Positions 4,849 through 54,490 of a stretch of 54,490 nucleotides of DNA are shown here, in pieces. This DNA comes from Nitrospirota bacterium (GTDB taxonomy: Bacteria > Nitrospinota > Nitrospinia > SZUA-224), in the NCBI GenBank assembly GCA_003229375.1, contig QIDP01000088.1, positions 1 to 54,490 of the forward strand. The letters are read 5' to 3'. The position numbers and the translations under genes were made by a program. The notes beneath the pieces are model-generated. The model saw only the letters and a list, made by a program, of their open reading frames with translations, was not told the DNA's origin and did no database searches. Within the stretch, counting starts at the first letter, position 1, and each line of letters opens with the position of its first letter.

Positions 4849-4849
4849 A

Positions 4850-5680
4850 ATGAAGATAAAATTCTGGGGTGTAAGAGGGAGCATTCCAACACCTGGATAT
4901 TCAACCCTCAAGATCGGAGGAAATACCAGTTGTGTTGAGATAAGGGCCGGAGATGAACTGATTATTATTGATGGCGGCAGCGGGCTTAGGTTGCTCGGAG
5001 AAAGTTTATTAAAGGAGATACCCCTTAAGGGGATGTTTCTCTTCAGTCATTATCACTGGGACCATATTCAGGGATTCCCTTTTTTTTCACCTGCATATAT
5101 CAAGGAGAATGAGTTTCAAATCTTCGGGGGAAATGGGTTGAGTTATAGCCTCCAGAAATCTCTCTTCGGACAGATGGACCATCCGAACTTCCCTATTGAA
5201 CTTAAAAACATGGGATCTAAAATGGTATTTCACGAACTCCTTGAGGGGGAGGAAATTATAAAGGGCGGGGTAAAAATATCCAATACCTTTGTGAATCACC
5301 CGAGCAGTTCCCTCGCATATCGCATAGATCATGAGAATAAATCCTTTGTTTATAGTAGTGATACCGAGCATCTTCCTGATGGAGTAGATCAAAAATTACT
5401 GAAGTTTGCAAAAGGCGCTGATATCATTGTATACGATGCGCAGTATACCCCTGAAGAGTATGAGGGAACTCATAAATGGTGGGGATCAAGGAAAGGATGG
5501 GGGCACAGCACCATGATAGAGGGTGTTAAACTGGCAAAAGCGGCTGGCATCAAGAAGCTCGTTCTGTCTCATCACGACCCCTCGCGTGATGATGATGCTA
5601 TAGCAAGGATAGAAAAGGAGGCCCAAAGGCTTTTCCCGAACTCAATAGCAGCCTATGAAGGATTAGAGATATATATATAA
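4850..5680 (+). CDS. MBL-fold metallo-hydrolase
   Basis: MKIKFWGVRGS..., HxHxDH motif SHYHWDHIQG, later SHHDP; ATG at 4850 lies 1 nt after the trxB stop behind GGGGGAAG. Confidence 0.85.
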   Translation: MKIKFWGVRGSIPTPGYSTLKIGGNTSCVEIRAGDELIIIDGGSGLRLLGESLLKEIPLKGMFLFSHYHWDHIQGFPFFSPAYIKENEFQIFGGNGLSYSLQKSLFGQMDHPNFPIELKNMGSKMVFHELLEGEEIIKGGVKISNTFVNHPSSSLAYRIDHENKSFVYSSDTEHLPDGVDQKLLKFAKGADIIVYDAQYTPEEYEGTHKWWGSRKGWGHSTMIEGVKLAKAAGIKKLVLSHHDPSRDDDAIARIEKEAQRLFPNSIAAYEGLEIYI

Positions 5681-7700: not shown

Positions 7701-8340
7701 GAAGATTAATTTGGAAAAGACCCTCCCTCATCTTGAAAAGATGGAAGACAAAGAGATAATCATTGTAGACGGAGGAAGCACAGATAATACAGCAAGTGTG
7801 GCAAAGAGATATGCGGATAAACTTCTTTTATCATGTCAGGATAGGGGAATCCAGATGAATACTGCTGCACATAATGCTGAGGGTGACATGCTCCTTTTTC
7901 TGCACGCCGATTCGGAACTCTCTACAGATGGATACAATAAATTGCTTGAGGCTTCAGAGGTGAGAGGTATTGCGGGTGGCGCCTTCTACCTCGCAATAGA
8001 TTCAAAACGATTCCTCCTTAAGTTTATCTCCCTTGCAGCCAATCTCAGATCCAAATTATTCAGAATAGCCTATGGGGACCAGGGGATCTTTGTAAGGCGC
8101 GATATCTTCGTTAAAATAGGAGGATTTAACAATCTCCCTTTATTTGAGGATGCAGACCTCTTCAGACGATTAAAGAGGGAAGGAGAGGTGATCTTCATTA
8201 AAAGTATTCTCACATCTGCACGCAGATGGGATGGAGAAGGTGCATTATATACTACTTTCAGGAATATGATACTTGCCTCCTTCTACTTCCTAGGTTTCTC
8301 ACCACAAACACTGATTAGGTGGTATCCAAATGTGAGGTAA
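7666..8340 (+). CDS. family 2 glycosyltransferase
   Basis: MKVSIIIPTLNE, IIVDGGSTDNT, LLFLHADS; start overlaps the cyaA end by 35 nt. Confidence 0.8.
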   Translation: MKVSIIIPTLNEKINLEKTLPHLEKMEDKEIIIVDGGSTDNTASVAKRYADKLLLSCQDRGIQMNTAAHNAEGDMLLFLHADSELSTDGYNKLLEASEVRGIAGGAFYLAIDSKRFLLKFISLAANLRSKLFRIAYGDQGIFVRRDIFVKIGGFNNLPLFEDADLFRRLKREGEVIFIKSILTSARRWDGEGALYTTFRNMILASFYFLGFSPQTLIRWYPNVR

Positions 8341-24389: not shown

Positions 24390-24577
24390 CCCTTTCTGAT
24401 TTGAAACTACCTTTTCAAAATTAGTTGATTAAGTTGATTAGTTGAAACTCTTTTCATTTTTTTTCTAATTTCCAATTTCAGTGTTCTGTGAACGCTTACA
24501 ATAAAATCTATTAACATACTCAACCAATCAACATTCTCCTATCTATTTCTCCTTCCACGAGATTACCCTGCTGTTTG
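24386..24577 (-). repeat. 192-nt leader block, copy 1
   Basis: About 96% identical (6 substitutions, 1 indel by eye) to 28352-28542; spans a pilY1 3' end, the intergenic region and the first codons of the next gene. Confidence 0.85.
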
Positions 24578-27500
24578 TGTTAATGGCTGTTCCCAGTGTC
24601 TGTTGCGTAATCTGTCCGGAACCGCCCTGAATAAATCCTGTCAGCCTTGATCCTGATCCGTTTGCAGCACCTCCACACGATACATCCAATGCCCCTGCAC
24701 CTCCGCCTCCGCCCCCAAGGGTCTCGCCGGTTCCCATGTGCAGACCTACCTGGGATGGGCTACCGGATCCCAGGGAGACCTTACTCAAAACCTTTTCATC
24801 ACCATCCGCATTTACAGTTCCAGGATCAGTACCCATGATAGATTCCTCATAGGCAGTACCTGTCTCATAATATAGGGCATACAGGTATCCGTCTCCGCCA
24901 TAGCTGCAGATATTGGTATCGGGCACAAAGGTGGTAAAGAGGACCATGCCACCGAACATCACCGGCTTGGTCAATGATCTCTCTCCTGATAGAGAAAAAT
25001 CTATATACCATCCATCCCCTGCTGCTATATCGTTAATAAGATCGTTAAAATTACCACCTGTACTTACTTCCCCGCCTTCGTATACAACCACATTTGATGA
25101 GTCATAAAGAGCGGTTATCGTATCAGTACAGGCAAATATGCTTCCATTCCAGCACTTCTCCTTTATACCGTAAAAGCTCTGACCATTTGTGTCTGTCTTA
25201 TCATCCGTGCTCAGGAACCTGCCTGTCCCGAAATATACCCATAGATCCTTATTACTATTCATGGCTGTTGTCGGGGCAGCGGTTATAGACTTACCGGTAC
25301 CTGTATCGTATAGAGTTGATACATCCCAGTTGGCAGGACTGGAATCATCCTCCATCGATATCCTGAACATCTTTCCCTTCCATGCCCCGCTCTCTTTATA
25401 TGTCTCACCTATGTAGGCCACCTCTGTAGCATAGCTTCCACCCACATCATTTATCTTGAGATCAACATCGACAGTAATAGGATCTGCCATAAAGGCATTG
25501 CTCTCTGTTCGATCAAATCTCCGTTTGAGTTCACCTGTCTTCAGATCGACTATAAAGATATGACCGGTCTGATCACTGGTACCGTCATAATCTGTAGGGC
25601 CTGACCCGACAATCACAAACCAATTATTATCCACCTTTGCCACCGCAGGGTATGACATGGTAAAGCCAAGATCAGGGTCTGTAAATCTCCAGAGAAATTT
25701 GGGACTCGATGGCACTGTTATATCGAGTGCAAAGTAGGCTGACCTGAATGTCCTTGCACTGCCGCTATTATTGAAATTGTTTATTGTTAATTCCCCTCCG
25801 CCAAACCTCATACCGGCAATAAGCACTGTACCCCATCCACCTGGATGTACACTACTATCAGGCGTAAATATCTTTGCATCTAATACCTTAGGGTTCAGAT
25901 CAACATAATAGACATGGCTGTAGTATTTATTGGTCAGCCATTTGAGATGAGGGAGGAGGTCGTAAGGGATATATGCCCATAGCTCCTCTCCTCTCTTATT
26001 ATTGCTATCCTCATACCATCCATACTCTGTCTCGCTGGTTCCGGATTTATCCCCTGCATGATAGATCCCTGCCCTGAAAGCATGAAGCATACCATCATTT
26101 GCACCAACATAGACCACTGTCTCTCTATCTTTATATAGGTTGCGGAAGTCTAAATAATCTTTGTCAGCATATATAAAGTCCATATTCTCCATGGGTCTGC
26201 CTACCACAGTTGGTGTTGAGTATATGATGTCACCAAGTCTCCACTCGCCGGCACCTATTGTTCTGTTCCGTAAACCGCTTATATCCCCTCCTCTGATGAA
26301 GTTTATTATATTATCTGCTGTATATAGCCCTGTATCATCTGCCCTGAGATAGGGTTTAAGGGTTGAGGCATTGGTATCTTTAAATTCTATAAAGTCTCCT
26401 CCATCTCCTGATGAACATGCTGCCCAGGCAGGCTTGCACCAATTATCCTCATTGGCATCAACAAAGGTATATATATTCCTGGGACTGGCAGATACGTCCC
26501 TCTCTGCAAGCTTCTTCCCTGCCTCCCAGATAGGACTAATAGCATCCAGAGATATCTCCTCGGGGGTACCGTCCGGAACACCATCACCATCACTGTCTCC
26601 ATATCTATTTATCTTCCCTGTAGTGTTATCAAATATTATGATTTTATCCTCGGTTAGTATCTGTTTCCCGTCGCCATTACTATCCTCACGAAGATTTCCC
26701 CCCGGGTCTACCCACAATGCCTGAAGATAACCCAGCCAGGCTACCCCATCCTTAGACGGCATAAAGTATGCCTGAAACACGGATCCCTCTCCACCTCCTG
26801 AAGCCGTTACAACAGAGGCAGAGCCTGACGATGCGCTTCGTTTAAAGATATCATCTATAGCGCTTAAGATAGCGGCCTCTAACATATCCCCTTCCTGCGC
26901 CTCAAGATATGTGTCCGGTATGCCGTCATTATCTGCATCCCATTCACTCTGAAGGTCGGGTGTATTAGTACTATTTTCATCAATGAAACCACCGTTCTTT
27001 GCAGCATCCTTGAGGAGCTGGGAACCTGAACCAAATGCAAATACGGCATAAAGGGTTATGTTCTGTTCTTCCGGATTAAGATCACTTCTCAGATCAGTGG
27101 TATGTGCCCAGAGGGCAACATCATCCAGGTAATCCGAACCATTACTACTATAAGAACCAGGGTCATTGCTATCGCCATCATAGTTCTGCTTAGCGGCCGG
27201 TATGGCTAAATCCTGTGTAGATTCCCCATCTGTAATCATAATGACAAAACTCTCGCAGCATGAAACTGTTGCCCCAATATCTGTAAAATAGTAAGGATCC
27301 TTGTATGAATCCGAACTAAGATCATAATCAGTCGTAAAATACTCTTGAGGATTATTCTGTTTAAAATACATTGCCCCTTCATAAAGGGACTCTGCTAATG
27401 GAGTCCATGTCTCTGGATGAAGGTTTTCTATACTATATACAAGATGCTTGATATGGGTTTGAGTTAAACCGTTATCTGTATATACAAAATCATCAAAATT

Positions 27501-28355
27501 AATATACTTTTCAATCCTTCCTCCCTGATCAAGGTTAAATACCTCCAGACCAAATCTTACCTTATCACCCATCTTTTGGATGATCCCCTCCGGCGGGCTT
27601 GAGCCAACCTCAACTATGATATTGTATATGTTTGCAGCGCCACTACCATCCCCGCAATTTTTCCATCCACCCATACCGCCCATACCGCCCATCATACCAC
27701 CCATACCATCATAACAGTCATCCTTATCCATACCCATACGTCTTCCATGTCCCCCTCCATATATATTAAATGGCATGCTGGTATTATCTACGTATATCTT
27801 GCCGTCAGCATATACGCCATAATATGTACCATTATATTGTTTCACAAATGTCCTGCAGCAGGCGCCATTGTCAGGAGGAACCTCTCCCTCTAATGCATAG
27901 TTTACTCCGGCTCCGGGGGACCTTGTTACAGCCTTACCTCCTGCCAGTACCTTTCTTGATATGTCTATCCTCCTCATGGTAACCCAGTTAAGAAAATTCC
28001 CGCTCCACGCTCCCGGGCCTGATGAATAAAAACAGCCCTTACCGCCGCATGCGGGTCTGGTACCGCTGCTGTCATAGTCATATTTGAGCAAAGGATCAAA
28101 ATAGCCATAGTAGGTTTTAGTAGAGTCAAAACCGTTATCTGTGGTCTTATAATCATCGTCATTGTCGTATGCCGGCATGTTCATGCTCCCCGAGTTATCC
28201 TGTATAATCAGGACATTGGGTGTTGCAGAGGGCATTATAAATGGAGGATATGCAGTATAGTCTGCCATTGTCTGAGCTGATATATGTGCGGTCTGCAGCC
28301 CGCCCGAAAATAAAACGGCTAATATTATTAATATCTTCTTCATAATCATCACCAT
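24543..28355 (-). CDS. pilY1: PilY1-like vWA adhesin (cassette B, distal copy)
   Basis: LIIQDNSGSM ... MITDGESTQD; VYVGANDGMLHAF; WAYIPYDLLPHLKWL; contains a Met/Gly-rich insert. Confidence 0.9.
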   Translation of the reverse strand: MVMIMKKILIILAVLFSGGLQTAHISAQTMADYTAYPPFIMPSATPNVLIIQDNSGSMNMPAYDNDDDYKTTDNGFDSTKTYYGYFDPLLKYDYDSSGTRPACGGKGCFYSSGPGAWSGNFLNWVTMRRIDISRKVLAGGKAVTRSPGAGVNYALEGEVPPDNGACCRTFVKQYNGTYYGVYADGKIYVDNTSMPFNIYGGGHGRRMGMDKDDCYDGMGGMMGGMGGMGGWKNCGDGSGAANIYNIIVEVGSSPPEGIIQKMGDKVRFGLEVFNLDQGGRIEKYINFDDFVYTDNGLTQTHIKHLVYSIENLHPETWTPLAESLYEGAMYFKQNNPQEYFTTDYDLSSDSYKDPYYFTDIGATVSCCESFVIMITDGESTQDLAIPAAKQNYDGDSNDPGSYSSNGSDYLDDVALWAHTTDLRSDLNPEEQNITLYAVFAFGSGSQLLKDAAKNGGFIDENSTNTPDLQSEWDADNDGIPDTYLEAQEGDMLEAAILSAIDDIFKRSASSGSASVVTASGGGEGSVFQAYFMPSKDGVAWLGYLQALWVDPGGNLREDSNGDGKQILTEDKIIIFDNTTGKINRYGDSDGDGVPDGTPEEISLDAISPIWEAGKKLAERDVSASPRNIYTFVDANEDNWCKPAWAACSSGDGGDFIEFKDTNASTLKPYLRADDTGLYTADNIINFIRGGDISGLRNRTIGAGEWRLGDIIYSTPTVVGRPMENMDFIYADKDYLDFRNLYKDRETVVYVGANDGMLHAFRAGIYHAGDKSGTSETEYGWYEDSNNKRGEELWAYIPYDLLPHLKWLTNKYYSHVYYVDLNPKVLDAKIFTPDSSVHPGGWGTVLIAGMRFGGGELTINNFNNSGSARTFRSAYFALDITVPSSPKFLWRFTDPDLGFTMSYPAVAKVDNNWFVIVGSGPTDYDGTSDQTGHIFIVDLKTGELKRRFDRTESNAFMADPITVDVDLKINDVGGSYATEVAYIGETYKESGAWKGKMFRISMEDDSSPANWDVSTLYDTGTGKSITAAPTTAMNSNKDLWVYFGTGRFLSTDDKTDTNGQSFYGIKEKCWNGSIFACTDTITALYDSSNVVVYEGGEVSTGGNFNDLINDIAAGDGWYIDFSLSGERSLTKPVMFGGMVLFTTFVPDTNICSYGGDGYLYALYYETGTAYEESIMGTDPGTVNADGDEKVLSKVSLGSGSPSQVGLHMGTGETLGGGGGGAGALDVSCGGAANGSGSRLTGFIQGGSGQITQQTLGTAINTNSRVISWKEK

Positions 28356-28542
28356 CCCTTTCTGATTTGAAACTACCTTTTCAAAATTAGTTGATTAAGT
28401 TGATTAGTTGAAACTCTTTTCATTTTTTTCTAATTTCTAATTTCAGTGTTCTGTGAACGCTTACAATAAAATCTATTGACATAATCAACCAATCAACATT
28501 CTCCTATCTATCTCTCCTTCCATGAGATCACCCTGCTGTTTG
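28352..28542 (-). repeat. leader block, copy 2
   Basis: See 24386-24577. Confidence 0.85.
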
Positions 28543-31500
28543 GACTGAGGGCTGTCTCTATTGTTTGTTGTGTGATCTGACCTGAACTGCCCTGCATAAA
28601 TGCCGTTATCTTTGATCCTGATGAATTTGCAACGCTTCCACACGACACATCCAATACACCGATACCTCCACTACCTCCGCCCGCAAGGGTCTCTTCGGTT
28701 CCGATGTGCAGCCCCACAGAAGATGGGATGCCGACTCCAAGGGGTACCTTAATAAGTACCTTTTCCTTACCTGCTTCAGCATCACTCTCGGTACCAAATA
28801 TAGATTCCTTATAGGCGGTTCCTGTCTCATAATACAGGGCATACAGGTATCCATCTCCGCCATCTCCGCAAATGTTGGTATTGGGTGCAAAGGTGGTAAA
28901 GAGTACCATACCGCCGAATATCACCGGTTTACTCAATACCCTCTCTCCTGATACAGAGAAATCTATGCGCCATCCATCATAATCGGTCTTTACCTTAGTG
29001 ACAAGTTCATCAAGAGTGCCGCCGGCTTTTAACTCTCCACCTTCATATACAACCACATTGGTTGAGTCATAAAGATTGCCCGCAGAGCTATAACACCCAT
29101 TGGTCCATTGCTGGTTAACATTATCCCAGCAGTTCTCCATGATACCGTAAAAGCTCTGGACATTTGTATCTGTCTTATCGTTCCGGCCCAAGAACTTGCC
29201 TGTCCCAAAATATACCCAGAGGTTCTGATTACCATCCATAGCCACAGCCGGGGCAGTGCTTATAGACTGACCCGGATTTGTTTCGTAGAGGGATGATACC
29301 TCCCATGTAGAATTATCCGTCTTCGATATCCTGAGCATCTTTCCCTTCCAGACTCCACTCTCTTTATATGTCTCACCTATGTATATCACATCTGTAGCAT
29401 AGCTTCCGTTTACGTCATCTATTTTAAGATCAACATCGACAGTGATGGGATTTGCCATAAAGGCATTGCTCTCAACGAGATTATAAACCTTTACAGCTTC
29501 GTTTACAGCCAGTTTTCGGCCTGTCCTGAGATTCAGGACGAATATGCTGGCAGTCTGATCGCTGGTACCGTTATAGTCTGTAGGCCCTGACCCGACAAAT
29601 ACATACCAATTATTGGTATTAGCCCCTATCTTTGCCACTGCAGGGTATGACATGGTAAAAGCAAGATCAGGATGTGTAAATCTCCACAGGAATCTTGGAC
29701 TCGATGGCACTGTTATATCGAGTGCAAAGTAGGCTGATCTGAATGTCCTTGCACTGCCACTGCCATTGAAATTGTTTATTGTTAATTCCCCTCCTCCAAA
29801 TCTCATACCACCAACAAGTACTGTACCCCATCCACCCGGATGGTCCGCATCAGAGTCGAATATCTTTGCATCCAATACCTTGGTCTTCAGGTCAACATAG
29901 TACACATGGGTATAATTTGGATCGGTAAGCCACTTAAGATGAGGCAGGAGATCATAAGGTATATATGCCCATAACTCCTCCCCTCTATTATCATTGCTAT
30001 CCTCATACCATCCATACTCCTTCTCGTCTGTACCCGGATCATCACCTGTATGGTAGACACCTGCCCTGAAGGCATGGAGCATACCATCATTTGCGCCGGC
30101 ATATACCACGGTCTCTCTATCTCTGTACTTGTTATAGAATTCTAAATAATCTTCATCAGCGTATATAAAATCCATATTTTCCATGGGTCTGCCTACTACT
30201 GTTGGTGTTGAGTATACAATATCACCGAGTCTCCACACCTTAGCTGTCCCATCAACATCTACTGTCCTGTCCCTCAAACCGCTTACACCTTCTCCTCTGA
30301 TGAAGTTTATTATATTATCTGCTGTATATAGTCCTGTACCATCTGCCCTCAGATAGGGTTTAAGGGTTGAGGCATTGGTATCTTTAAATTCTATAAATTC
30401 CCCTTCTCCCTGAGAACATGGCGCCCAGGTATTCTTGCACCAACCATCCTCATTGGTATCGACAACGGCATATATCTTCCTGGCAGATACGTTCATATTA
30501 GCAAGCTTTTTCCCTGCCTCCCAGATAGGGATAATATCATACAGAGGGCCCTTTTGAGGGCTGCCGTCCGGAACCCCATCTCCATTGCTGTCCTGATATT
30601 TCCATACCTCTGTCTCCCCTTTATCATTAACTACCAACTCTACGATTTTATCCTCGGTTAGTATCTGTTTCCCGTCGCAATCACTGTCCTCACGGAGATT
30701 TCCCCCCGGGTCCACCCACAATGCCTGAAGATAACCCAGCCAGTCTACCCCATCCTTAGATGGCATAAAATATGCCTGAAAGAGAGAGCCTTCCCCGCTT
30801 CCTGAGGTTGTTACAACAGAGGTAGAGGCAGAGGACATTGTTTGTTTAATGATACTATCTATAGCGCCTAAGATAGAGGCCTCTAATGCCTCCCCTTCCT
30901 GTGCCTCAAAAAATTTCCCGCCTCCATTATCTGCTGCATCCTGCAGGAGCTGGGAACCTGCGCCAAAGGCAGATATGGTATAAAGTGTTAGATTTTGTTC
31001 TCCGTCAAGTGCTCTCAGATCAGTGGTATATGCCCAGGATGCAACAGCAGGAAGGTCGCTTCCCACAGGTATATTGTCATCCTCTGTAGACTCGCCGTCT
31101 GTAATCATGATGACAAAACTCTCGCAGCATGAGACCTTTCCCCCGATATCCGTAAAGTAATAAGGATCCTTGTATGTATTCGCATCGATCTCATAATCGG
31201 ACGGAGTATTAACTGTATAATAGGGGGACTTCTGACTGAAATACCTTGCCCCCTCATAAAGAGATTCTCCCAGGGGAGTCCATGTCTTAGGATGGAGGTT
31301 TTCTACACTATCTACAAGATGTTCAATATGGGTTTTATTGTCTGTATATACATAATCACCAAAATTAATATACCTTTCAATCCTCCCTCCCTCTGTATCA
31401 TTAAATACCTCAAGACCAAACCTTACATTATTCCCCATCTTTTGAATAATCCCGAGCGGGGTTGAGTCAATCTGAACCCTGATGTTATGTATCCCTGTTG

Positions 31501-32173
31501 TGCCTGCACATGGCTGATATGTATTATCCTTATTTTTTCCCCTGCATCCTCCGCTATATATAGTTGATGCTGAAGGGTCCACAGCAATCTTCCCCTCTTG
31601 CACACAATAATAGTAATTACCATTATGCGGGGTATATATAGCTCCTGCGTCGTTATATTGTTTTATAAATTGCCTGCAGCAGGCGCCATTGTCAGGAGGA
31701 GCTTCTCCTGTTAATGCATAGGGATCGGCCCCGGGGGATCTTGTTACAGCTTTACCTCCCACCAATACCTTTCTTGCTATGTCTATCCTCCTCATGGTAA
31801 CCCAGTTAAGAAAATTCCCGCTCCACTGTCCCGGGCCTGAAGGGTAAAAACAGTCTTCGCCTCCGCATCCTGCAATACCGCTGCCATAGGCATATTTACT
31901 GAAAGGATCAAAATAGCCATAGTAAGTTTTATTCGGGTCAAAATCATTATCTATAGTCGTATAATCATCGTCGTTATCGTATGCCGGTCTGTTCATACTC
32001 CCCGAATTATCCTGTATTATCAGGATATTCGGTGTCGCAGATGACATCATAAATGGAGGATATGCAGTATAGTCTGTCATTGTCTGGGCTGATATATGTG
32101 CTGTCCGCAATCCGCCTAAAAGTAAAACAGTCAATATTATTAATATTCTCTTCATAATCATAATCATCACCAA
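28508..32173 (-). CDS. pilY1: PilY1-like vWA adhesin (cassette B, proximal copy)
   Basis: Same motif set; N-terminal 100 aa closely match the distal copy. Confidence 0.9.
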   Translation of the reverse strand: MVMIMIMKRILIILTVLLLGGLRTAHISAQTMTDYTAYPPFMMSSATPNILIIQDNSGSMNRPAYDNDDDYTTIDNDFDPNKTYYGYFDPFSKYAYGSGIAGCGGEDCFYPSGPGQWSGNFLNWVTMRRIDIARKVLVGGKAVTRSPGADPYALTGEAPPDNGACCRQFIKQYNDAGAIYTPHNGNYYYCVQEGKIAVDPSASTIYSGGCRGKNKDNTYQPCAGTTGIHNIRVQIDSTPLGIIQKMGNNVRFGLEVFNDTEGGRIERYINFGDYVYTDNKTHIEHLVDSVENLHPKTWTPLGESLYEGARYFSQKSPYYTVNTPSDYEIDANTYKDPYYFTDIGGKVSCCESFVIMITDGESTEDDNIPVGSDLPAVASWAYTTDLRALDGEQNLTLYTISAFGAGSQLLQDAADNGGGKFFEAQEGEALEASILGAIDSIIKQTMSSASTSVVTTSGSGEGSLFQAYFMPSKDGVDWLGYLQALWVDPGGNLREDSDCDGKQILTEDKIVELVVNDKGETEVWKYQDSNGDGVPDGSPQKGPLYDIIPIWEAGKKLANMNVSARKIYAVVDTNEDGWCKNTWAPCSQGEGEFIEFKDTNASTLKPYLRADGTGLYTADNIINFIRGEGVSGLRDRTVDVDGTAKVWRLGDIVYSTPTVVGRPMENMDFIYADEDYLEFYNKYRDRETVVYAGANDGMLHAFRAGVYHTGDDPGTDEKEYGWYEDSNDNRGEELWAYIPYDLLPHLKWLTDPNYTHVYYVDLKTKVLDAKIFDSDADHPGGWGTVLVGGMRFGGGELTINNFNGSGSARTFRSAYFALDITVPSSPRFLWRFTHPDLAFTMSYPAVAKIGANTNNWYVFVGSGPTDYNGTSDQTASIFVLNLRTGRKLAVNEAVKVYNLVESNAFMANPITVDVDLKIDDVNGSYATDVIYIGETYKESGVWKGKMLRISKTDNSTWEVSSLYETNPGQSISTAPAVAMDGNQNLWVYFGTGKFLGRNDKTDTNVQSFYGIMENCWDNVNQQWTNGCYSSAGNLYDSTNVVVYEGGELKAGGTLDELVTKVKTDYDGWRIDFSVSGERVLSKPVIFGGMVLFTTFAPNTNICGDGGDGYLYALYYETGTAYKESIFGTESDAEAGKEKVLIKVPLGVGIPSSVGLHIGTEETLAGGGSGGIGVLDVSCGSVANSSGSKITAFMQGSSGQITQQTIETALSPNSRVISWKER

Positions 32174-35367: not shown

Positions 35368-38300
35368 CTATCTGTTCTCCATCCAGTACAGCAGCCCTGA
35401 CTTTACAGAAAATGGCAGTACCGGCAAATCAATCTTAATAATTTTACCGGTGGTTGTCTGGATGTATGCCGTAGCCCCTTCCTCATCTCCCAGATGCATG
35501 CTTATACCCGAGGAAGCGCCATCCCCTAAATCTGTGGATCTAAGAACAATAGACCCATTTAAGCCTATAACGTCTTCCTTCCATGCAGTACCTGTTGTAA
35601 AAAAAGTGGCATACAGCTTTCCTGTTCCGCCAAAATTACAGGGATTACTATCAGGGGTAAAGGTATTAAAGAAGACCATCCCCGCTAATATGCTTGGCTT
35701 ATTAAGCGATCTCTCAGCAGGCTCGGAAGTACCACTTCCAGGAAGATCTATATACCATCCATCATAATTGGTCTTTATATTGGTATTGAGGTCGTCAAGA
35801 GTAGCACTAGCGCCTCCTGTCCCGCCCAAATCTCCACCTACAGATACAACCACACTGGTTGAGTCATAGAGATTACTCGCAATGTCAGTACATCCATCGG
35901 TCCATTTCAGGCTGACATTATCCCAGCACTTCTCCTTGATACCATAAAAGCTCTGTCCTTTGGTATCCAATTTATCCAGATCATTATAATATCTTCCTGT
36001 GCCGAAATATACCCATAGATCATATTTAAGACATGATGGCTGCAGACACCCGGGTGGTAAGGCAATAGCAGCAGCAGGGGCAGCAGTAACAGGCTGTTCT
36101 TTGGTTCCAACGGCAGTATTATAAAATTCTGAGGATATCCAGGAAACAGGATCGTCCTTTCCCTCCATTGCCACTCTAAGCATTTTTCCTTTCCATTCAG
36201 GGGCCGCTTTAGTGCCTATATTGTAGGTCATTCCCATGTAACCTGCCTCTGTAGTATAACTATTATTTATATCCACAGTAATGGTGCTTCCCATAAAGGC
36301 TTTCCCATCAGTGAAATCAAACTCTTTTCTGAGGTTACCTGTATCGAGATCCAGGACAAATATGTGGGCGTTTTGATCACTGTTTACATCATAATCTGTG
36401 GGACCGGATCCGATAATCACAAACCAGTTGTCATTGACCTTAGCTATAGAAGGATATGAGGCAGTGAAGCCGAGATCAGGGGCTGTAAATTCCCATAGCA
36501 GTCTCGGGGGATTGGCAGTGTTTGTTATATCGAGCGCAAAATAGGCCGATCTGAATGTCTTCGGGCTGCCGCTGCCATTGAAATCATTTATTGTCAATTC
36601 TCCGCCCCCTAACCTCATTCCGCCTATAAGGATCGTGCCCCAGCATTTACCGGTGGTACCATTTTTACCTACATAGACAGGGTTAGCGCCGGTATCACAT
36701 TCAAAGATCTGTGCATCTGTGATCTTGGGTTTCATGTCTACATAGTATACATGTGTGTAGTCTTCGCCGGTCAACCACTTGAGATGGGGGAGAAGATTGT
36801 AAGGTATGTATGCCCATATCTCGGTCCCCGGCTCTGCTGCGCTCCCAGAAGGGGTATTGCCGGTTCCGTCGGCAATCTTATACTTCTTATTCTCTTTATC
36901 GTAAAATCCGGCAGTAAATGCATGGAGCATCCCGTCATTTGCACCCACATATACTATAGTCTCTCTATTATTATTATATCTCTTATAAAAGTCGCGATAG
37001 GTATCATCCCGATATCTGAGGTGGTATTTCTCCATTGGTCTTCCTACAACCGTAGGTGTTGAGTATACAATATCACCGAGTCTCCATACTGTTCCATTAT
37101 CTATTTTTCTCTTCCTTAAACCGGTTACATCCTCGCTCTCACCCCTGATGAATTTGATTATATTCTCTGCTGTATATAGCCCTGTATCATCTGCCCTTAG
37201 ATAGGGTTTAAGGGTGGAGGCATTGCCCTCCGTAAAATATTTAAAGTCCCCTTCTCCCGGTGCACATGGTGTTTTGCTGACATTGCACGCATGATCCTCA
37301 TTGCTGTCAACAAAGGTGTATATATTCCTGGGATCGGCAGATATATCCCTATCTGCAAGCATCTTCCCTGCCTCCCAGAGTGATTTCAGATCATCCAGAT
37401 CAACGCCTGTCTCATACGGCGCATCTTCCGGCAGACCATTGCTTTGAACATGGTATCTATTGATTTTGGTCTTATTCTCTAATGGATCGAATACAAACTT
37501 TATTATATCGTCATTGTTATCAGTATCTAACTGCATATCACCATCCGAATCCTCCCTCAGATTACCATACGAATCTATCCAGAGCGCCTGTAGATAGCCC
37601 GGCCACTCTACTCCCTCCCTGGATGGCAGAAAATATGCCTGAAAGACAGATCCCTCACCCTCTCCTGCGGTCGTTACAACAGAGAGAGAGGTAGAGGTCA
37701 TTGTTTGTTGAAGGATACTATTTATAGCGTTTAAGATAGCAGCCTCTAAATCATCCCCTTCCTCTGCCGCACTATATGTGTCCGGTATATTATCACCATC
37801 TGCATCCCATTCAATCTGAAGATCAGGGATATCATTATCATTATCATCAATGAAACCGCCGTTCTTTGCAGCGTCATAAAGGAGCTGGGAACCTGCGCCA
37901 AATGCAAATATGGTGTATAGTGTTATATTCTGTTCTCCGGCAATCTCCTTATCACCGGCGGGCCTCATATCAGTGGTATGTGCCCAGAGGGCGACATCAT
38001 CAAGGTAATCCGAGCCATCAGAACTATAAGTGCCCGGGTCATTGCTATCGCTATCATAATCCTTAAGATTGTCCGGTATATCTAAATCTTTTGTAGATTC
38101 CCCATCTGTAATCATAATGATAAAACCCTTGCTGCATGAGAGTGTTTCTTCAACAATTGTGGAATAGTAAGGATCATTACCATTGCCCGTAACAGAATAA
38201 TCGGTCGAAAGATAATATGGGTCAACCTGCCTAAAATAGTTTACCCCCTCATAAAAGGACTCTGCCAGGGGGGTCCATGTCTCAGGATGCAGATTTTCTA

Positions 38301-39084
38301 TATTAGTTACAATGGCACCTGTATTGCCGGATTTTATATAGTTTACAATCCTTCCTCCCTGTCTAATATTAAATACCTCCAGACCGAATCTTACCTTATC
38401 ATCCATCTTTTGAATGATCCCCTCCGGCGGGGCAGAGCCAATCTCAACCCTGATGTTGTATCTTCCATGCCATCCGGAAAATGGCGAATCATCATCATCC
38501 ACGTATATCATTCCATCCTCATATACGCCATAATAATAATCACCGGAATATGGGGTCATGCCTGTACCGTTATGTTGTTTCTTGAATTCTCTGCAGCAGG
38601 CGCCATTGTCAGGAGGGACCTCTCCTGCTAATGCATATGGATCGGGTTCAGGGGATCTCCCTACGGTTTTACCTCCCACCAACACCTTTTTTGCTATGTC
38701 TATCCTCCTCATGCTAACCCAGTTAAGAAAATTCCCATCCCACTCTCCTGAGCCTGAAGGGTAAAAACAGTCTTTACCTCCGCATCCGTCAATACCGCTG
38801 CCATAGGCATATTTGAGCAAAGAATCAAAATACCCGTAGTATGTCTTATTCGAGTCGAAACCGCTACTGTATGCCTCCATGTTCATACTCCCCGAGTTAT
38901 CCAGTATTATCAGGATACTTGGTGTCACAGATATGGTCATAAATGGGGGATATGCAGTATAATCAGCTATTGTTTGAGCTGATATGTGTGCGGTCCGCAA
39001 CCCACCCAAAAGTAAAACAGTCAATATTATGAATATCCTCTTCATATAATTCGAAATTCGAAAATAACTTAATATCCTTTTCAT
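35368..39084 (-). CDS. pilY1: PilY1-like vWA adhesin (cassette A)
   Basis: LIILDNSGSM ... MITDGESTKD; VYVGANDGMLHAF; WAYIPYNLLPHLKWL; start is either the ATG at 39084 (ATGA overlap with the upstream ORF) or the ATG at 39045 (MKRIFIILTVLLLGG). Confidence 0.88.
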   Translation of the reverse strand: MKRILSYFRISNYMKRIFIILTVLLLGGLRTAHISAQTIADYTAYPPFMTISVTPSILIILDNSGSMNMEAYSSGFDSNKTYYGYFDSLLKYAYGSGIDGCGGKDCFYPSGSGEWDGNFLNWVSMRRIDIAKKVLVGGKTVGRSPEPDPYALAGEVPPDNGACCREFKKQHNGTGMTPYSGDYYYGVYEDGMIYVDDDDSPFSGWHGRYNIRVEIGSAPPEGIIQKMDDKVRFGLEVFNIRQGGRIVNYIKSGNTGAIVTNIENLHPETWTPLAESFYEGVNYFRQVDPYYLSTDYSVTGNGNDPYYSTIVEETLSCSKGFIIMITDGESTKDLDIPDNLKDYDSDSNDPGTYSSDGSDYLDDVALWAHTTDMRPAGDKEIAGEQNITLYTIFAFGAGSQLLYDAAKNGGFIDDNDNDIPDLQIEWDADGDNIPDTYSAAEEGDDLEAAILNAINSILQQTMTSTSLSVVTTAGEGEGSVFQAYFLPSREGVEWPGYLQALWIDSYGNLREDSDGDMQLDTDNNDDIIKFVFDPLENKTKINRYHVQSNGLPEDAPYETGVDLDDLKSLWEAGKMLADRDISADPRNIYTFVDSNEDHACNVSKTPCAPGEGDFKYFTEGNASTLKPYLRADDTGLYTAENIIKFIRGESEDVTGLRKRKIDNGTVWRLGDIVYSTPTVVGRPMEKYHLRYRDDTYRDFYKRYNNNRETIVYVGANDGMLHAFTAGFYDKENKKYKIADGTGNTPSGSAAEPGTEIWAYIPYNLLPHLKWLTGEDYTHVYYVDMKPKITDAQIFECDTGANPVYVGKNGTTGKCWGTILIGGMRLGGGELTINDFNGSGSPKTFRSAYFALDITNTANPPRLLWEFTAPDLGFTASYPSIAKVNDNWFVIIGSGPTDYDVNSDQNAHIFVLDLDTGNLRKEFDFTDGKAFMGSTITVDINNSYTTEAGYMGMTYNIGTKAAPEWKGKMLRVAMEGKDDPVSWISSEFYNTAVGTKEQPVTAAPAAAIALPPGCLQPSCLKYDLWVYFGTGRYYNDLDKLDTKGQSFYGIKEKCWDNVSLKWTDGCTDIASNLYDSTSVVVSVGGDLGGTGGASATLDDLNTNIKTNYDGWYIDLPGSGTSEPAERSLNKPSILAGMVFFNTFTPDSNPCNFGGTGKLYATFFTTGTAWKEDVIGLNGSIVLRSTDLGDGASSGISMHLGDEEGATAYIQTTTGKIIKIDLPVLPFSVKSGLLYWMENR
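39046..39065. repeat. short CGAAATT-type heptamer tract between two in-frame pilY1-A start codons
   Basis: ataatt cgaaatt cgaaaat; bracketed by the direct repeats ATGAA(A/G)AGGATATT. Confidence 0.7.
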
Positions 39085-39422
39085 TGTCTTGCCTCCTCCC
39101 ATGCTATGATTTCTTCTACAATATTGTTGATAACAATCAACTTCACCATAGAATGTATTGCAATATCCTTCTTTTCTATAGCGTTATCCCTGTAAGTCAC
39201 CCTCACAGAGGGCGAGACATTGAAGGAAGAGAGAATATCAGTTTTGCTGTCAACAATACTCACTCTATCCTCCTTAAAGCCTGCAAAAAATCCCTCATGT
39301 GTCTCTATAATTCCATAATGTGAAGACTCATTACCAAACAGACTGGAATGACCCGCATCCATGCTCATAAAGGATATAACCATGACTATAATCATAAAAA
39401 TCATAAATCTATTGCTTTGCAT
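39081..39422 (-). CDS. small secreted hypothetical protein
   Basis: 113-aa ORF, signal-like FMIFMIIVMVISFMSMDA; sits between pilX-A and pilY1-A; no motif recognised. Confidence 0.5.
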   Translation of the reverse strand: MQSNRFMIFMIIVMVISFMSMDAGHSSLFGNESSHYGIIETHEGFFAGFKEDRVSIVDSKTDILSSFNVSPSVRVTYRDNAIEKKDIAIHSMVKLIVINNIVEEIIAWEEARQ

Positions 39423-50357: not shown

Positions 50358-51923
50358 TTAGCATGTCTCCTTCACAGGAATCATTATCTCAAACCTAGTC
50401 CCCTCACCTTTTTGGGCAGAGACGCTTATCCTCCCTCCCATATCTTCTATAATCCTGTGGCATATAGAGAGACCAAGTCCTGTCCCTTTTCCGGGTTCCT
50501 TTGTGGTGAAGAACGGATCGAATATCCTGGGGACATCCTCTTCACGTATGCCCGCTCCTGTATCTGAAAAGGTTAACCTGACCTGTCTCCCATCATTGCC
50601 GAATCTATCTTCAGGTATATGATTTGTCAGTTCACTGGAGACAGCCATGCTCCCTCCTCTATTTTCTATCATGGCATCTGCCGAGTTCAGCAAGAGGTTT
50701 ATTGCAACCTGCTCCATCTTATGACCATCAAGTCTCAGAGGAGGAATCTCATCCGACAGGTTAAGAGATATCTCTATATTACGAAATGCCTTTTGATTGT
50801 GCAGCAGTTCGACAGAATCCCTAAGAATTTGATTTATATCCACATCTGTTATGATACCCCTGGGGGGTGTAGCAAGATTCAATAACCCTCTTACTATCTC
50901 GTCTATCCTGTCAACCTCCCTCTCAACCCTCCTAAGGGAGTCTATATCCTCTGATGTTCTCTCTTTAGCATTAGACAGGACATTGATATATCCATTTATC
51001 GCTCCTAAGGGATTACCTATCTCATGAGCAACCCCTGCTGCCATTCTCCCGATAGCTGCCAGCCTTTCAGAACGCATAACCTCATCCCTTGCCTCTCTCA
51101 ACTCTATATTTCTCTTCTTGAGGAGTTCTATATGTTTTTCAAGACTTTCTGTCTTATCTCTCAACCTTTCTGTCATCTGGTTAAATGCATAAGAGAGTCT
51201 CCCTATCTCATTATCACTTTCCACTTTTACCTTATGGCCAAGATCGCCATCAGAGACCCTCTCTGTCGCCTCAACCAATCTCTGAATAGGTTTTACTACA
51301 GTCTTTGAAAGGAGAAAGCTGCCAAATATCACCAATATCAGTGCATCGACAGTTATATAGAGAAATGTCAATCCACGCATCTTCAGAAGGATACCTCTCG
51401 GATCGAGTAGTGACATTTCACCACTGATACCACCAACAATTCGTCCTTCAATATATATGGGTGATGTAATGATGAGTTTATCTGTTTTATTCAGAAAAAA
51501 AGAACTTTCTTTCCCTTTCTCTTCTCTGATATCAAATATCCCATTATTAATGCATTTCAGTAAAAATGGATCTTTAAGTGTCTTGCCTGTAAGTTCACTC
51601 CTTGAGGATGCAAGCACCTTCAATCCCTTATCAACTATAGACAGCTCGCTGAATCCCCCTTCTCTGGTATAGAGACCTATCAATTTTGTAATACCGGATT
51701 CCTTCATAATATCCGGGAAGAGAATCGGATCATTTTTCATCATAATAGAGATGCTGTTTTCTATAGAGGAGACCATTACTCTGGTGTTTTGGGACCTGTA
51801 CTCGGTGAAAAGGTGTTTGGTTACCTTTAACAGGATGATACCGATCAGCAGCAGCGCAGCTACCAGAAGGACAGTTATATCAGCTATTATCTCTTTTCTT
51901 AAGCCTTTCTTAATCTTTTTCAT
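50358..51923 (-). CDS. sensor histidine kinase (2 TM, periplasmic sensor, HAMP, HisKA, HATPase)
   Basis: TM helices near aa 15-35 and 185-205; HAMP; H-box AAGVAHEIGNPL; G-boxes DTGAGI, GTGLGLSI. Confidence 0.9.
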   Translation of the reverse strand: MKKIKKGLRKEIIADITVLLVAALLLIGIILLKVTKHLFTEYRSQNTRVMVSSIENSISIMMKNDPILFPDIMKESGITKLIGLYTREGGFSELSIVDKGLKVLASSRSELTGKTLKDPFLLKCINNGIFDIREEKGKESSFFLNKTDKLIITSPIYIEGRIVGGISGEMSLLDPRGILLKMRGLTFLYITVDALILVIFGSFLLSKTVVKPIQRLVEATERVSDGDLGHKVKVESDNEIGRLSYAFNQMTERLRDKTESLEKHIELLKKRNIELREARDEVMRSERLAAIGRMAAGVAHEIGNPLGAINGYINVLSNAKERTSEDIDSLRRVEREVDRIDEIVRGLLNLATPPRGIITDVDINQILRDSVELLHNQKAFRNIEISLNLSDEIPPLRLDGHKMEQVAINLLLNSADAMIENRGGSMAVSSELTNHIPEDRFGNDGRQVRLTFSDTGAGIREEDVPRIFDPFFTTKEPGKGTGLGLSICHRIIEDMGGRISVSAQKGEGTRFEIMIPVKETC

Positions 51924-51982
51924 GATTCAGAGGAGAGCTCTAAAGTGATCTAAAGTTATGGATAATAAAGAATTTTACAATA

Positions 51983-52014
51983 ACTTTAGGCACTTCAAAC
52001 TTTAGGCACTTCAA
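51983..52014. repeat. perfect tandem 16-nt direct repeat upstream of the kinase gene
   Basis: ACTTTAGGCACTTCAA x2. Confidence 0.8.
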
Positions 52015-52060: not shown

Positions 52061-54274
52061 TCAGATTACCCTATCTCCTCCCATTATAGAGATCTTCTTG
52101 TCAGCCTCGTTTAACCTTGAAATCAGAGAATTGACTATACGAATAGCGATTTCCGGATAGTTCTCAATAGTTTCTTTCAGCTTATCCCCCGGAAAGACCT
52201 TAACTACACTCTTCCCATTCGATTTGACAGTAGCGGTTCTTGCTACATCCATAAGTGCGCTCATCTCGCCAAAATAGTCTCCCGGCTGGGTTATCTCTCC
52301 TACCTTTATGTCATACTTATATATCTCCACGGCTCCCTGAATCAATTGATAGAAATTCTTGTCTGTATTCCCTTCCTTGATTATCACGTCACCATTCTCA
52401 AAGATCAGTTCATCCGGATTCAGGAGATATGCAGGGAGTGCCTCTTTTACCATCACCGTATTCCTCAACACCTCATATATGGTAGTAACCCCCTCCCTGA
52501 TCTTATGCAGCCCTTCCTGACGCAAGGTAGACATGCCCTCCTTTATGGCAATCTTTCTCAACTGCTCCTGAGGAACCTGTGATGTGATTGCCTCCTTAAT
52601 AGTCTCGGGGATCTCCATTATCTCATAGACTGCCACTCTTCCCTTGTACCCTGTGCCGGCACATTTCGGGCACCCCTTGCCTTCAAAGATTTTCAGGCTA
52701 TCAAATTCGTCAGAGGTAAACCCTGCCTCAATCAATTCCCTCTTGTTGGGTTTTACCTCCTCTTTGCAATTGGTACAGATGCGGCGTAAAAGTCTCTGGG
52801 CAATAACCATTGTCAGAGAGGAGGCAATCATATAACCGGGTATGCCTATATCCAGAAGCCTCCATACAGTAGATGGACAGTCATTCGTATGAACTGTGCT
52901 GAATACCAGATGACCTGTCATGGCAGCCTTTATTGCAATCTCGGCTGTTTCCATATCTCTGATCTCACCAACAAGGATGATCTCGGGATCTTGTCTCAAG
53001 AAGGCCCGTAATGCATTTGCAAAGGTCATTCCGATCTCTGTCTTGACATGGACCTGATTGATCCCGGGAAAGTTGAACTCTACAGGGTCCTCTACGGTCA
53101 GGATCTTGGTTTCGACATTATTTAAGGCATTTATCGCAGAATAGAGGGTCGTTGTCTTCCCGCTCCCGGTAGGGCCTGTCACAAGAATCTGACCGAATGG
53201 CCGTTTTATGGTCTTCATAAATTTATCCAATCCCTCTTGTGTAAAACCGAGTTTTGTAAGATCGACATTCAGGGTAGATTTATCCAGAATACGAAGGACT
53301 ATAGACTCTCCAAATAAGGTAGGAAGTGTGGAGACCCTGAAATCAACGGTTCTATTTCTTCCTACCTTCAATTTTATACGTCCGTCCTGAGGGATACGCC
53401 TCTCTGCTATATTCAGATTTGCCAGTATCTTGAACCTGGAAATCAGCGCATTCTTAATCTGTATAGGGAGGTTAAGTGATCTATGGAGGGTGCCGTCAAG
53501 GCGATATCTTACCTGAAAGGTACTTTCAAAGGGCTCTATATGTATATCACTAACACCCATTTTTATCGCCTTTGTCAGGATACTGTTCACCAGTTTGATA
53601 ATAGGGGCATCGCCTGCCGAGTATAGATCTTCTCCGATATCCTTATCATCAGGTTCATTGTCAACAGCTATCTCATCTGTTGCCTCGGAGACAAGTGAGC
53701 CAATATCATCGATATCCTTTATCTCCAATGATTTATCATCGCCTCCACTATCTATCTTCTTGAAGAATCCCTTGTATTCTTCATCACTTATATGGTAATA
53801 GCTCTTATAGGCATCGATTATATCCTTCTCTTGTGAAACCGCGGCCTTTATTGAGAGCTTTGTCATGGTCTGAATATCTTCTATGGTAGTGTTGTTTGTA
53901 GGATCACACATAGCGAGTGTCAATACATTGTTAGCCACCCTAACCGGAAATATCATATGCTCCTTTGCAACTTCATAGGGTAATACCTTGACCGTCTCAG
54001 GGTTAATCTTAAGATCTGTTATCTTTATCGTACTATACCCATACTGCCTGCTCAGGAAATTGATAATGGTATCCTCATCTATAAAACCCATCCTAACCAG
54101 GATTGAACCTATACGACTTTTATTCTTCCTTTGAACGGCTAATGCCTCATCTAACTGGGATTTGGTAATTAGTCCGTCTTTCCTGAGCATATCTCCCAGT
54201 TTTTCATGTTTTATCCCGCCCTTTATTGTCTTTTTAAAAGCTGATTTCTTTTCTGCTAGCTGCACTTGTGCCAT
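52061..54274 (-). CDS. pilB: type IV pilus extension ATPase PilB with C-terminal cNMP-binding domain
   Basis: T2SS-E N-domain, Walker A GPTGSGKTTT, tetracysteine CTNC...CPKC; extra C-terminal ~130 aa with ...GDYFGEMSALMDVARTATV. Confidence 0.9.
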   Translation of the reverse strand: MAQVQLAEKKSAFKKTIKGGIKHEKLGDMLRKDGLITKSQLDEALAVQRKNKSRIGSILVRMGFIDEDTIINFLSRQYGYSTIKITDLKINPETVKVLPYEVAKEHMIFPVRVANNVLTLAMCDPTNNTTIEDIQTMTKLSIKAAVSQEKDIIDAYKSYYHISDEEYKGFFKKIDSGGDDKSLEIKDIDDIGSLVSEATDEIAVDNEPDDKDIGEDLYSAGDAPIIKLVNSILTKAIKMGVSDIHIEPFESTFQVRYRLDGTLHRSLNLPIQIKNALISRFKILANLNIAERRIPQDGRIKLKVGRNRTVDFRVSTLPTLFGESIVLRILDKSTLNVDLTKLGFTQEGLDKFMKTIKRPFGQILVTGPTGSGKTTTLYSAINALNNVETKILTVEDPVEFNFPGINQVHVKTEIGMTFANALRAFLRQDPEIILVGEIRDMETAEIAIKAAMTGHLVFSTVHTNDCPSTVWRLLDIGIPGYMIASSLTMVIAQRLLRRICTNCKEEVKPNKRELIEAGFTSDEFDSLKIFEGKGCPKCAGTGYKGRVAVYEIMEIPETIKEAITSQVPQEQLRKIAIKEGMSTLRQEGLHKIREGVTTIYEVLRNTVMVKEALPAYLLNPDELIFENGDVIIKEGNTDKNFYQLIQGAVEIYKYDIKVGEITQPGDYFGEMSALMDVARTATVKSNGKSVVKVFPGDKLKETIENYPEIAIRIVNSLISRLNEADKKISIMGGDRVI

Positions 54275-54353
54275 ATTAAATCTTGCCCCTCTTTACTTAA
54301 AACATAAATAAACGTCTCTGAGATTCTACAATATTTTCAGTGGTTTAATATTT

Positions 54354-54409
54354 AACCACAGAAGACACTGAGTAAATCTCTGTGTTCTCTGTGGTTTTAA
54401 TTTAAATAG
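54354..54409 (+). promoter_or_regulatory. hairpin plus conserved 36-nt motif (copy 2)
   Basis: AACCACAGAAGACACTGAG taaat CTCTGTGTTCTCTGTGGTT (16/19 pairing); AAATCTCTGTGTTCTCTGTGGTTTTAATTTAAATAG ends 2 nt before an ATG at 54412. Confidence 0.4.
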
Positions 54410-54490
54410 TTATGAATAAGAGGTACCACAAACGGCTATTTATCTATATAATTTATCTATATAAAATAAGCTATTATTATAATTATGTCA

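Follow-up and report, generated by a model that had tools for sequence, protein, structure and literature searches.

We describe here a pilus motor in which the ATPase is followed, within the same polypeptide, by a cyclic-nucleotide-binding (CNB) domain. The gene, referred to as pilB-CNB, lies close to one end of a 54,490-nucleotide contig (QIDP01000088.1 of assembly GCA_003229375.1; the window, meaning the whole stretch of DNA analysed) from a Nitrospirota bacterium placed by GTDB in the Nitrospinota (Nitrospinia; SZUA-224). By predicted function, its 737-residue product is a complete type IVa pilus extension ATPase, PilB. It ends in an intact predicted cyclic-nucleotide receptor domain, probably for cyclic AMP (cAMP), and carries near its start an MshEN module that is likely to bind cyclic di-GMP (c-di-GMP), this second assignment being less secure than that of cyclic nucleoside monophosphate (cNMP) binding by the tail. 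The fusion is a real, conserved and uncharacterised PilB variant, and it belongs to a sizeable family which is neither rare nor unique to the window. What is new is the combination, as the motor, the MshEN module and the CNB domain are each standard.

A Pfam profile search of the product gave the domain order MshEN, T2SSE, cNMP_binding, with T2SSE (PF00437) matching residues 220–604 at 460.3 bits. The NCBIfam equivalog model for type IVa PilB, TIGR02538, covers residues 25–607 and scores 745.7 bits against a cutoff of 675.65, whereas the GspE model TIGR02533 reaches 590.6, below its own cutoff of 630.25. This is one reason for calling the motor PilB; the others are the resemblance of the core to Geobacter PilB, the invariance of the catalytic motifs and the position of the gene in a pilus super-locus. 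In Foldseek comparisons the core is 55–56% identical to the Geobacter PilB structures 5tsh and 5zfr, with TM scores of 0.81–0.92, and the N2D and C-terminal domain fold of the PilB hexamer subunit is matched in 5tsh, 5zfr, 5oiu and 6olj (target TM 0.81–0.92). The Walker B/Asp box (DPEIILVGEIRD, residues 429–440) and the His box (T460/H462) are both present, and in Walker A, the catalytic boxes and the tetracysteine motif nearly every position is invariant, or close to it, among relatives. The gene starts with ATG, preceded by a ribosome-binding site, AGAGGGG. The core closes with GVTTIYEVLRNTV at about residue 607, after which some 130 further residues follow.

These further residues form the CNB domain. 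The Pfam model PF00027 (cNMP_binding) matches residues 625–706 with 54.1 bits (gathering threshold 27.5, E 1.6e-14), the match spanning profile positions 4–89 of 89, and the best sequence matches of the tail in the PDB are the ligand-binding CNB domains of PKG, PKA-R, HCN and SthK. AlphaFold2 (AF2) predicts the barrel and helices with a local distance difference test score (pLDDT) of 85–90, both in the full-length model and for the tail alone. Foldseek matches this fold to Vfr (7ff9), CRP (1g6n), Mycobacterium tuberculosis CRP, HCN2/4 and SthK at query TM scores of 0.65–0.75, the values for Vfr and CRP, with the long C-helix included, being 0.74–0.75. Within the phosphate-binding cassette (PBC), F668, G669, E670 and R679 are found in all 121 family members and A681 in 117; R720 on the C-helix is present in 120. 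The invariance of F-G-E and of the arginine therefore indicates purifying selection on the predicted ligand site. A profile alignment to Escherichia coli CRP (hhalign) pairs E670, R679, T680 and R720 with E72, R82, S83 and R123, which are cAMP contacts in CRP, and A724 and D725 with T127 and S128. Position 680 varies in the family (Thr in 46, Ser in 27, Asn in 27 and Ala in 13 of the 121), a pattern that argues against strict cGMP selectivity through a threonine. The protein ends at residue 737, after the C-helix, so that no helix-turn-helix or other DNA-binding domain follows, and the NCBIfam CRP model matches only over profile positions 15–137 of 214. Thus, pilB-CNB is not a CRP/FNR transcription factor, and has the effector domain alone in common with that family.

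At the other end of the protein, NF053729, the NCBIfam model for the 53-residue MshE-type c-di-GMP motif, matches residues 25–77 with 65.4 bits (cutoff 38), and the Pfam model PF05157 (MshEN) matches residues 78–164 with 61.9 bits. Motif I occupies residues 25–48 and motif II residues 54–77, separated by a spacer of five residues (49–53), as in MshE. Residues 25–161, 137 in all, align end to end with Myxococcus xanthus PilB (100.5 bits), and the N-domain also aligns with Geobacter PilB, Thermus PilF and Vibrio cholerae MshE (5htl, 62.5 bits). Measured against the relaxed definition of the 24-residue motif (PMC5013675), motif II is canonical at every position. In motif I the Lys at position 1 is allowed, and the Arg at position 7, where a hydrophobic residue is expected, is not; across the family, the consensus residues at positions 1, 7 and 11 are K/R/V, R/C/K/S and Q, respectively. 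The affinity for c-di-GMP is uncertain because this consensus is non-hydrophobic at positions 7 and 11, and binding by motif I is accordingly rated as plausible, not certain. Ahead of the module, residues 1–24 carry a family-conserved basic motif, (K/R)KSSFKKTI (consensus MAxxxxKKSSFKKTI), in an extension which is not present in MshE or M. xanthus PilB and which is disordered in the AF2 model.

An earlier note, made from the letters of the window alone, had read the open reading frame (ORF) as a complete PilB with tandem MshEN-type motifs in front and a CAP-type cNMP domain with an intact cassette behind. All three parts of that reading hold: the Walker A, tetracysteine and end-of-core motifs that it quoted are present, its two 24-residue segments are motifs I and II, and for residues ∼600–737 the profile match is significant and the predicted CNB fold confident. 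Its estimate that the ORF is longer than usual by roughly 150 residues was right as to about 130 at the C-terminus; the remainder is the conserved 24-residue N-terminal extension, the comparison being with a PilB of ∼565 residues.

The fusion is shared by a large set of proteins. When the full-length protein was searched against clusters formed at 90% identity, with sources in NCBI, JGI, ENA, Logan and Tara assemblies, the best matches (at least 120 clusters, from 99% down to 57% identity) all had PF05157, PF00437 and PF00027 in the same order; their members belong to the Nitrospinota, the Thermodesulfobacteriota and Ca. Adiutricales. Every source name in those listed clusters is plain ‘PilB’, as are all the database names seen for these proteins, which points to a gap in annotation. 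One 99% identical protein, also of 737 residues, is known from an independent assembly. With one genome scanned per species, the complete junction of ATPase and tail was found in 27 GTDB species genomes from the Nitrospinota (some labelled Nitrospirae), the Thermodesulfobacteriota/Desulfobulbaceae, Ca. Adiutricales and unclassified Deltaproteobacteria. One of these is a cultured isolate, Desulforhopalus singaporensis DSM 12130, whose protein has 754 residues (NZ_FNJI01000009.1). The nearest relatives of the window protein, at 86–91% identity, are in groundwater metagenome-assembled genomes (MAGs) of Nitrospinota type (loci L001 and L002). A query limited to the junction (residues 541–737) recovered about 10 clusters spanning both halves in a 50%-identity library, and the divergent ones, at 37–42% identity, likewise combine T2SSE and cNMP_binding.

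The most conserved segment of the whole protein is the 15-residue linker (TVxxKEALPAYLLNP) between motor and tail, with a mean pairwise identity of 78% and with T606, P614 and Y616 present in 121 of 121 members. The corresponding values are 73% for N2D, 67% for the ATPase C-terminal domain, 66% for the CNB barrel, 54% for MshEN_N and 52% for the CNB helices, so that the barrel is about as conserved as the ATPase C-terminal domain. This pattern of conservation suggests functional coupling of the tail to the motor. Alignment with the second CNB protein of the window, described below, shows the PilB tail to be ∼10 residues short at the usual N-terminal helix; the linker therefore takes the place of the element which usually relays ligand binding. 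In the AF2 monomer, residues 610–618 have a pLDDT below 50, and we read them as a segment that may take on order only once the hexamer has formed or a particular ligand state is reached.

Taking these features together, we consider it rather probable that pilB-CNB is a working PilB in which a cyclic mononucleotide, probably cAMP, binds to the CNB domain and gates extension at the post-translational level, through the linker and/or through pairing of C-helices, and in which c-di-GMP is sensed N-terminally. The analysis itself shows the domain composition, the predicted fold, the conserved ligand-contact residues, the spread of the family, the pilus genes around pilB-CNB and a cyclase in the same window; from these we infer ligand binding, the identity of the ligand, and both the direction and the target of regulation. 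In such a mechanism, a 3',5'-cyclic mononucleotide, most likely cAMP from the organism's class I adenylate cyclase, would bind the PBC (G669-E670...R679-T680-A681) together with R720. Binding would shift the cassette helix and the B and C helices, as it does in other CNB domains. Since the short conserved linker, which connects the barrel with the final helix of the ATPase C-terminal domain, stands in for the usual N-terminal helical element, movement of the CNB domain would be passed on to the motor. The outcome would be that autoinhibition of ATP turnover or of hexamer cycling is relieved or imposed, or that C-helices of neighbouring protomers pair; the hydrophobic residues of the C-helix have the a/d spacing of the CRP dimerisation helix, and it is therefore possible that the CNB domains could pair between protomers in this way. 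In sum, cAMP would gate pilus extension directly and post-translationally, and its input would be combined with that of c-di-GMP sensed at the opposite end of the polypeptide.

A more elaborate version, which we offer tentatively and consider a good deal less likely, makes PilB a two-input coincidence detector. Here c-di-GMP at the MshEN module and cAMP at the CNB domain would jointly set the hexamer cycle, the CNB domains being paired between protomers via CRP-like C-helices, and the motor would be part of a wider module of the locus together with the TPR-CNB-PilZ protein and the class I cyclase. If this were true, pilB-CNB would be the first ATPase of the secretion superfamily to be directly gated by cAMP, and would provide a transcription-independent route from cAMP to pilus dynamics.

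Several observations weigh against the proposed mechanism. The cassette is altered in two divergent clusters, by G to C and R to H in one (P0133, FFCE...HTA) and by E to L in the other (P0134, FGL...RST); ligand binding is therefore not universal across the fusions. A further distant PilB-CNB relative, P0138, has an altered Walker A (GPRDSGKT) and an altered His box. Together the three clusters suggest that side lineages have secondarily lost ligand binding or ATPase activity. Motif I of the MshEN module is non-canonical for c-di-GMP, with Lys in place of Arg at position 1, Arg at position 7 and the consensus Gln at position 11. The AF2 monomer places the CNB domain relative to the ATPase without confidence (predicted TM score 0.48, and low pLDDT in the linker), and the route of coupling is therefore conjecture. 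In addition, the 2-oxoglutarate sensor NtcA is among the Foldseek matches of the tail, and bacterial domains of CNB fold can bind ligands other than cyclic nucleotides.

The window also encodes a class I adenylate cyclase, which could supply the ligand. Class I cyclases are best known from Gammaproteobacteria, and short ones are common in MAGs of Nitrospinae and Deltaproteobacteria. At least five MAGs apparently carry both cyclase and pilB-CNB, judged from neighbouring GenBank accessions (for example MBW1709603/MBW1709550, MBW2140075/MBW2140513 and MBI4378898/MBI4379040), an inference that relies on the serial issue of accessions within a submission. Synteny of the cyclase with pil genes was not found: 27 related loci have no cyclase gene within 10 kb of pilB-CNB, and two other cyclase loci (L047 and L048) are without pil genes. 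The conserved neighbour of the cyclase is instead a GT2 glycosyltransferase gene (7666–8340 in the window, + strand), the pair being kept in those same two Nitrospinota loci. The adjacency of cyclase and pilus genes in the window may therefore be coincidence, and we count the cyclase only as a sign that the ligand can be made.

Among the alternatives, the strongest, albeit an unlikely one in our estimate, is that the CNB domain does bind a cyclic nucleotide and yet steers the location or the partners of PilB, by docking to PilM or PilC or to a polar hub, rather than the chemistry of the motor. Most known regulators of PilB work through recruitment or through the binding of partners, and c-di-GMP left the rate of ATP hydrolysis by Clostridium PilB2 unaltered in vitro (PMC11656802). 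The window itself contains an SgmX-like cNMP-binding protein beside a ParA/MinD-type ATPase, and a highly conserved linker that is disordered in the monomer model is what would be expected of an interface formed only in a complex. However, a short and rigidly conserved covalent connection to the last ATPase helix suits intramolecular coupling at least equally well.

Less probable again is that the tail is a true receptor for something other than cAMP, be it cGMP, a different 3',5'-cNMP or an effector that is not a nucleotide, such as certain sensors of the CRP/FNR family bind; the 2-oxoglutarate sensor NtcA has the same fold. The window protein has R-T-A in its cassette, as PKG and HCN do; the PDB sequence that it matches best is that of the cGMP-binding CNB-D of Plasmodium PKG; and the matched SthK and HCN domains bind cAMP and cGMP alike. 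Against this, Thr at position 680 is not conserved in the way that cGMP selectivity would lead one to expect, the invariant G-E...R-x-A is a ribose-phosphate clamp specific to cyclic nucleotides, and the window has an adenylate cyclase, no guanylate cyclase being seen there.

We regard as improbable a third alternative, in which the tail is a ligand-independent pseudo-receptor with a structural role, for example in stabilising the hexamer through paired C-helices. The coiled-coil-like spacing of the C-helix would suit such a role, as would the retention of the domain in the two divergent clusters that have lost cassette residues, but a purely structural role would not constrain precisely the residues that contact the ligand, and without ligand binding it is difficult to account for F-G-E and R being invariant. 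Finally, the suspicion that a missed stop or frameshift around positions 52,400–52,500 had joined an ordinary pilB to a separate small cNMP-binding gene is refuted: these positions code for the linker, conservation peaks at the junction, and the same ORF recurs in at least 120 independent 90%-identity clusters and in the 27 species genomes, that of the isolate included.

The remainder of the window is a type IVa pilus super-locus, with aroB-pilQ-pilP-pilO/N-pilM, PilX_N genes, minor-pilin genes and a GspH/FimU-like pilin gene, in addition to the features listed in Table 1. No major pilin gene follows the PilR-like regulator in the window. In related loci, viewed over flanks of 10 kb or less, the only recurrent neighbour of pilB-CNB is a sigma-54 regulator, joined at times by pilM, and in several relatives pilB-CNB is an orphan.

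Table 1. Features of pilB-CNB and of selected neighbouring genes in the 54,490-nucleotide window
Feature	Position	Strand	Basis and remarks
pilB-CNB, whole gene	52061..54274	-	737 codons plus stop; TIGR02538 above cutoff
N-terminal extension, residues 1–24	54203..54274	-	Family consensus; alignment to PilB 3jc8 begins at residue 25; pLDDT < 50
MshEN_N, residues 25–77, two 24-residue c-di-GMP motifs (predicted)	54044..54202	-	NF053729; per-position conservation
MshEN C-subdomain (GSPII-type N1 domain), residues 78–165	53780..54043	-	PF05157; aligns to PilF, PilB and MshE structures
N2D and C-terminal ATPase core (T2SSE), residues 220–604	52463..53617	-	PF00437; Foldseek to Geobacter PilB
Walker A, GPTGSGKTTT, residues 367–376	53147..53176	-	367–374 and 376 invariant in a 49-sequence alignment
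Tetracysteine zinc motif, C500/C503/C535/C538	52661..52777	-	Invariant among relatives
Interdomain linker, TVMVKEALPAYLLNP, residues 606–620	52415..52459	-	Mean pairwise identity; pLDDT; gap relative to the other CNB protein
CNB domain, residues 621–737 (8-strand beta-barrel, PBC helix, B and C helices)	52064..52414	-	PF00027; AF2; Foldseek
PBC, FGEMSALMDVARTAT, residues 668–682	52229..52273	-	Conservation; CRP alignment
C-helix, residues 707–736	52067..52156	-	DSSP helix; hydrophobic a/d spacing at 714, 717, 721, 724, 728 and 731
HAMP-HisKA-HATPase sensor kinase (PilS position)	50358..51923	-	Directly downstream of pilB; found in synteny in L001, at 86% identity
Sigma-54-dependent response regulator (PilR position)	48760..50139	-	Sigma-54 regulators adjoin pilB-CNB in many related loci
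Four PilY1-propeller paralogues, 1221–1294 residues	17234–21118, 24543–28355, 28508–32173, 35368–39102	all -	
Class I adenylate cyclase, 671 residues	5685..7700	+	PF01295 and PF12633; NF006981 564.8 bits, below equivalog cutoff of 802
MBL-fold hydrolase	4820–5680	+	Ends 5 nucleotides before the cyclase start
TPR-CNB-PilZ protein, 601 residues	1660–3465	-	Beside ParA/MinD-type ATPase (280–1608, -)

The second CNB protein of the window, of 601 residues, is a candidate for another integrator of cAMP and c-di-GMP in the pilus locus. Its cNMP_binding match (residues 176–259) scores 85 bits and its MshEN C-subdomain 25.7 bits; the TPR matches are weak, and the PilZ match is sub-threshold at 19.5 bits, its RxxxR and DxSxxG motifs being recognisable around residues 291–335. 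It also has an MXAN_5187 C-terminal domain, and its first 114 residues match the N-terminus of the pilus-formation protein SgmX of Myxococcus. The MBL-fold gene was considered as a cAMP phosphodiesterase and rejected, as its match to the class II phosphodiesterase model is sub-threshold (13.9 bits, E 0.03) and its best solved relatives are RNase Z. Homologues at ∼40% identity lie 5–6 kb downstream of pilB-CNB in three other Nitrospinota loci (L003, 15517–16341; L014, 14306–15133; L044, 17564–18373), and they adjoin an HDOD-HD protein in both annotated loci (L044, and L049 on the same contig as L003). This recurrent co-location with pilB-CNB is unexplained.

Further features of the locus may be recorded here. 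The four PilY1 paralogues stand in a row, each with PilX_N or N-methyl minor-pilin genes beside it, which makes an unusually large number of pilus-tip modules for one locus. An IS200-like Y1 transposase gene (43664–44296, - strand) and a UPF0175 antitoxin-like gene (48412–48666, + strand) are inserted among the pilus genes. A 982-residue protein encoded at 44633–47581 (- strand) has a hydrophobic N-terminal segment, an HExxH motif (GHEYGHY) and no match in Pfam or NCBIfam; it may be a secreted metalloprotease within the pilus locus. Between the pilB stop and the kinase start, a 16-nucleotide perfect tandem direct repeat (AACTTTAGGCACTTCA twice) occupies 51982–52013, with 10-nucleotide inverted partial copies at 51940–51959. 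In front of the kinase gene, these repeats may serve as the binding site of a regulator; a terminator-like site was not found there (51940–52013). On the other side, 70–130 nucleotides upstream of the pilB start, is an imperfect inverted repeat of 29 nucleotides (54344–54406, 76% complementary, 5-nucleotide loop), and a 13-nucleotide perfect tandem repeat lies farther upstream at 54438–54463. They might act as a leader hairpin or as an operator.

In the best-studied systems, Pseudomonas with Vfr and the cyanobacteria with SyCRP1, control of type IV pili by cAMP is transcriptional. To our knowledge, direct control of a pilus motor by a second messenger is known for c-di-GMP only. As had been supposed at the outset, no characterised example came to light: the full-text literature searched contained no description of a PilB/GspE-CNB fusion, nor was one found of any secretion-superfamily ATPase with a CNB domain. 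In a 2024 review of PilB control (PMC11656802) and in a pilus review of 2026, the only route mentioned for cAMP is via the regulator Vfr. Databases already contain the architecture, and the fusion of CNB domains to other proteins is a recurrent theme. If our proposal is true, the fusion would provide a fast, transcription-independent link from cAMP to pilus extension and would place two messenger inputs on one machine, which suggests that second messengers could act directly on the motor, beyond gene expression alone. With a large family, purifying selection at the ligand site and a cultured member, the idea is directly testable.

The closest known systems are the motors that already contain a messenger receptor. 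MshE of V. cholerae, M. xanthus PilB, Thermus PilF and Clostridium PilB2 belong to the same motor family, have the MshEN tandem 24-residue motifs with a five-residue spacer and likewise have a second-messenger receptor built into the motor, but none has a C-terminal domain after the ATPase. Relative to these MshE-type ATPases, pilB-CNB adds a second, unrelated receptor and the conserved 24-residue N-terminal extension, and its motif I is slightly non-canonical. For the core, the closest solved structures are those of Geobacter metallireducens and G. sulfurreducens PilB (5tsh, 5zfr, 6olj), with which the N-domain aligns too. These constructs, of 582–588 residues, end after the ATPase domain, as do other PilBs of about 565–590 residues. 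The Geobacter locus has a similar neighbourhood logic, with pilB followed by pilS and pilR, although in the window there is no pilT or pilC between pilB and pilS.

For the tail, CRP and Vfr have the same effector-domain fold, with the aligned contact positions conserved, and both they and the proposed mechanism tie cAMP to type IV pili; whereas CRP and Vfr act on transcription, the output of pilB-CNB would be post-translational and on the motor. Fusions of CNB domains to enzymes or channels (the mycobacterial acetyltransferase Pat, PKG/PKA-R, Epac, HCN, SthK and MloK1) follow the same logic, in that the CNB domain gates the attached effector. In pilB-CNB, in contrast, that effector is a hexameric AAA+ motor of the secretion superfamily, the CNB domain is C-terminal, and the helical bundle is cut down to a linker. 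Finally, PilZ-FimX in Xanthomonas and Pseudomonas and SgmX/MglA in Myxococcus are separate proteins that bring messenger or polarity input to PilB post-translationally (PMC11656802), whereas in pilB-CNB the predicted sensor lies within the motor polypeptide and the messenger would be a cyclic mononucleotide.

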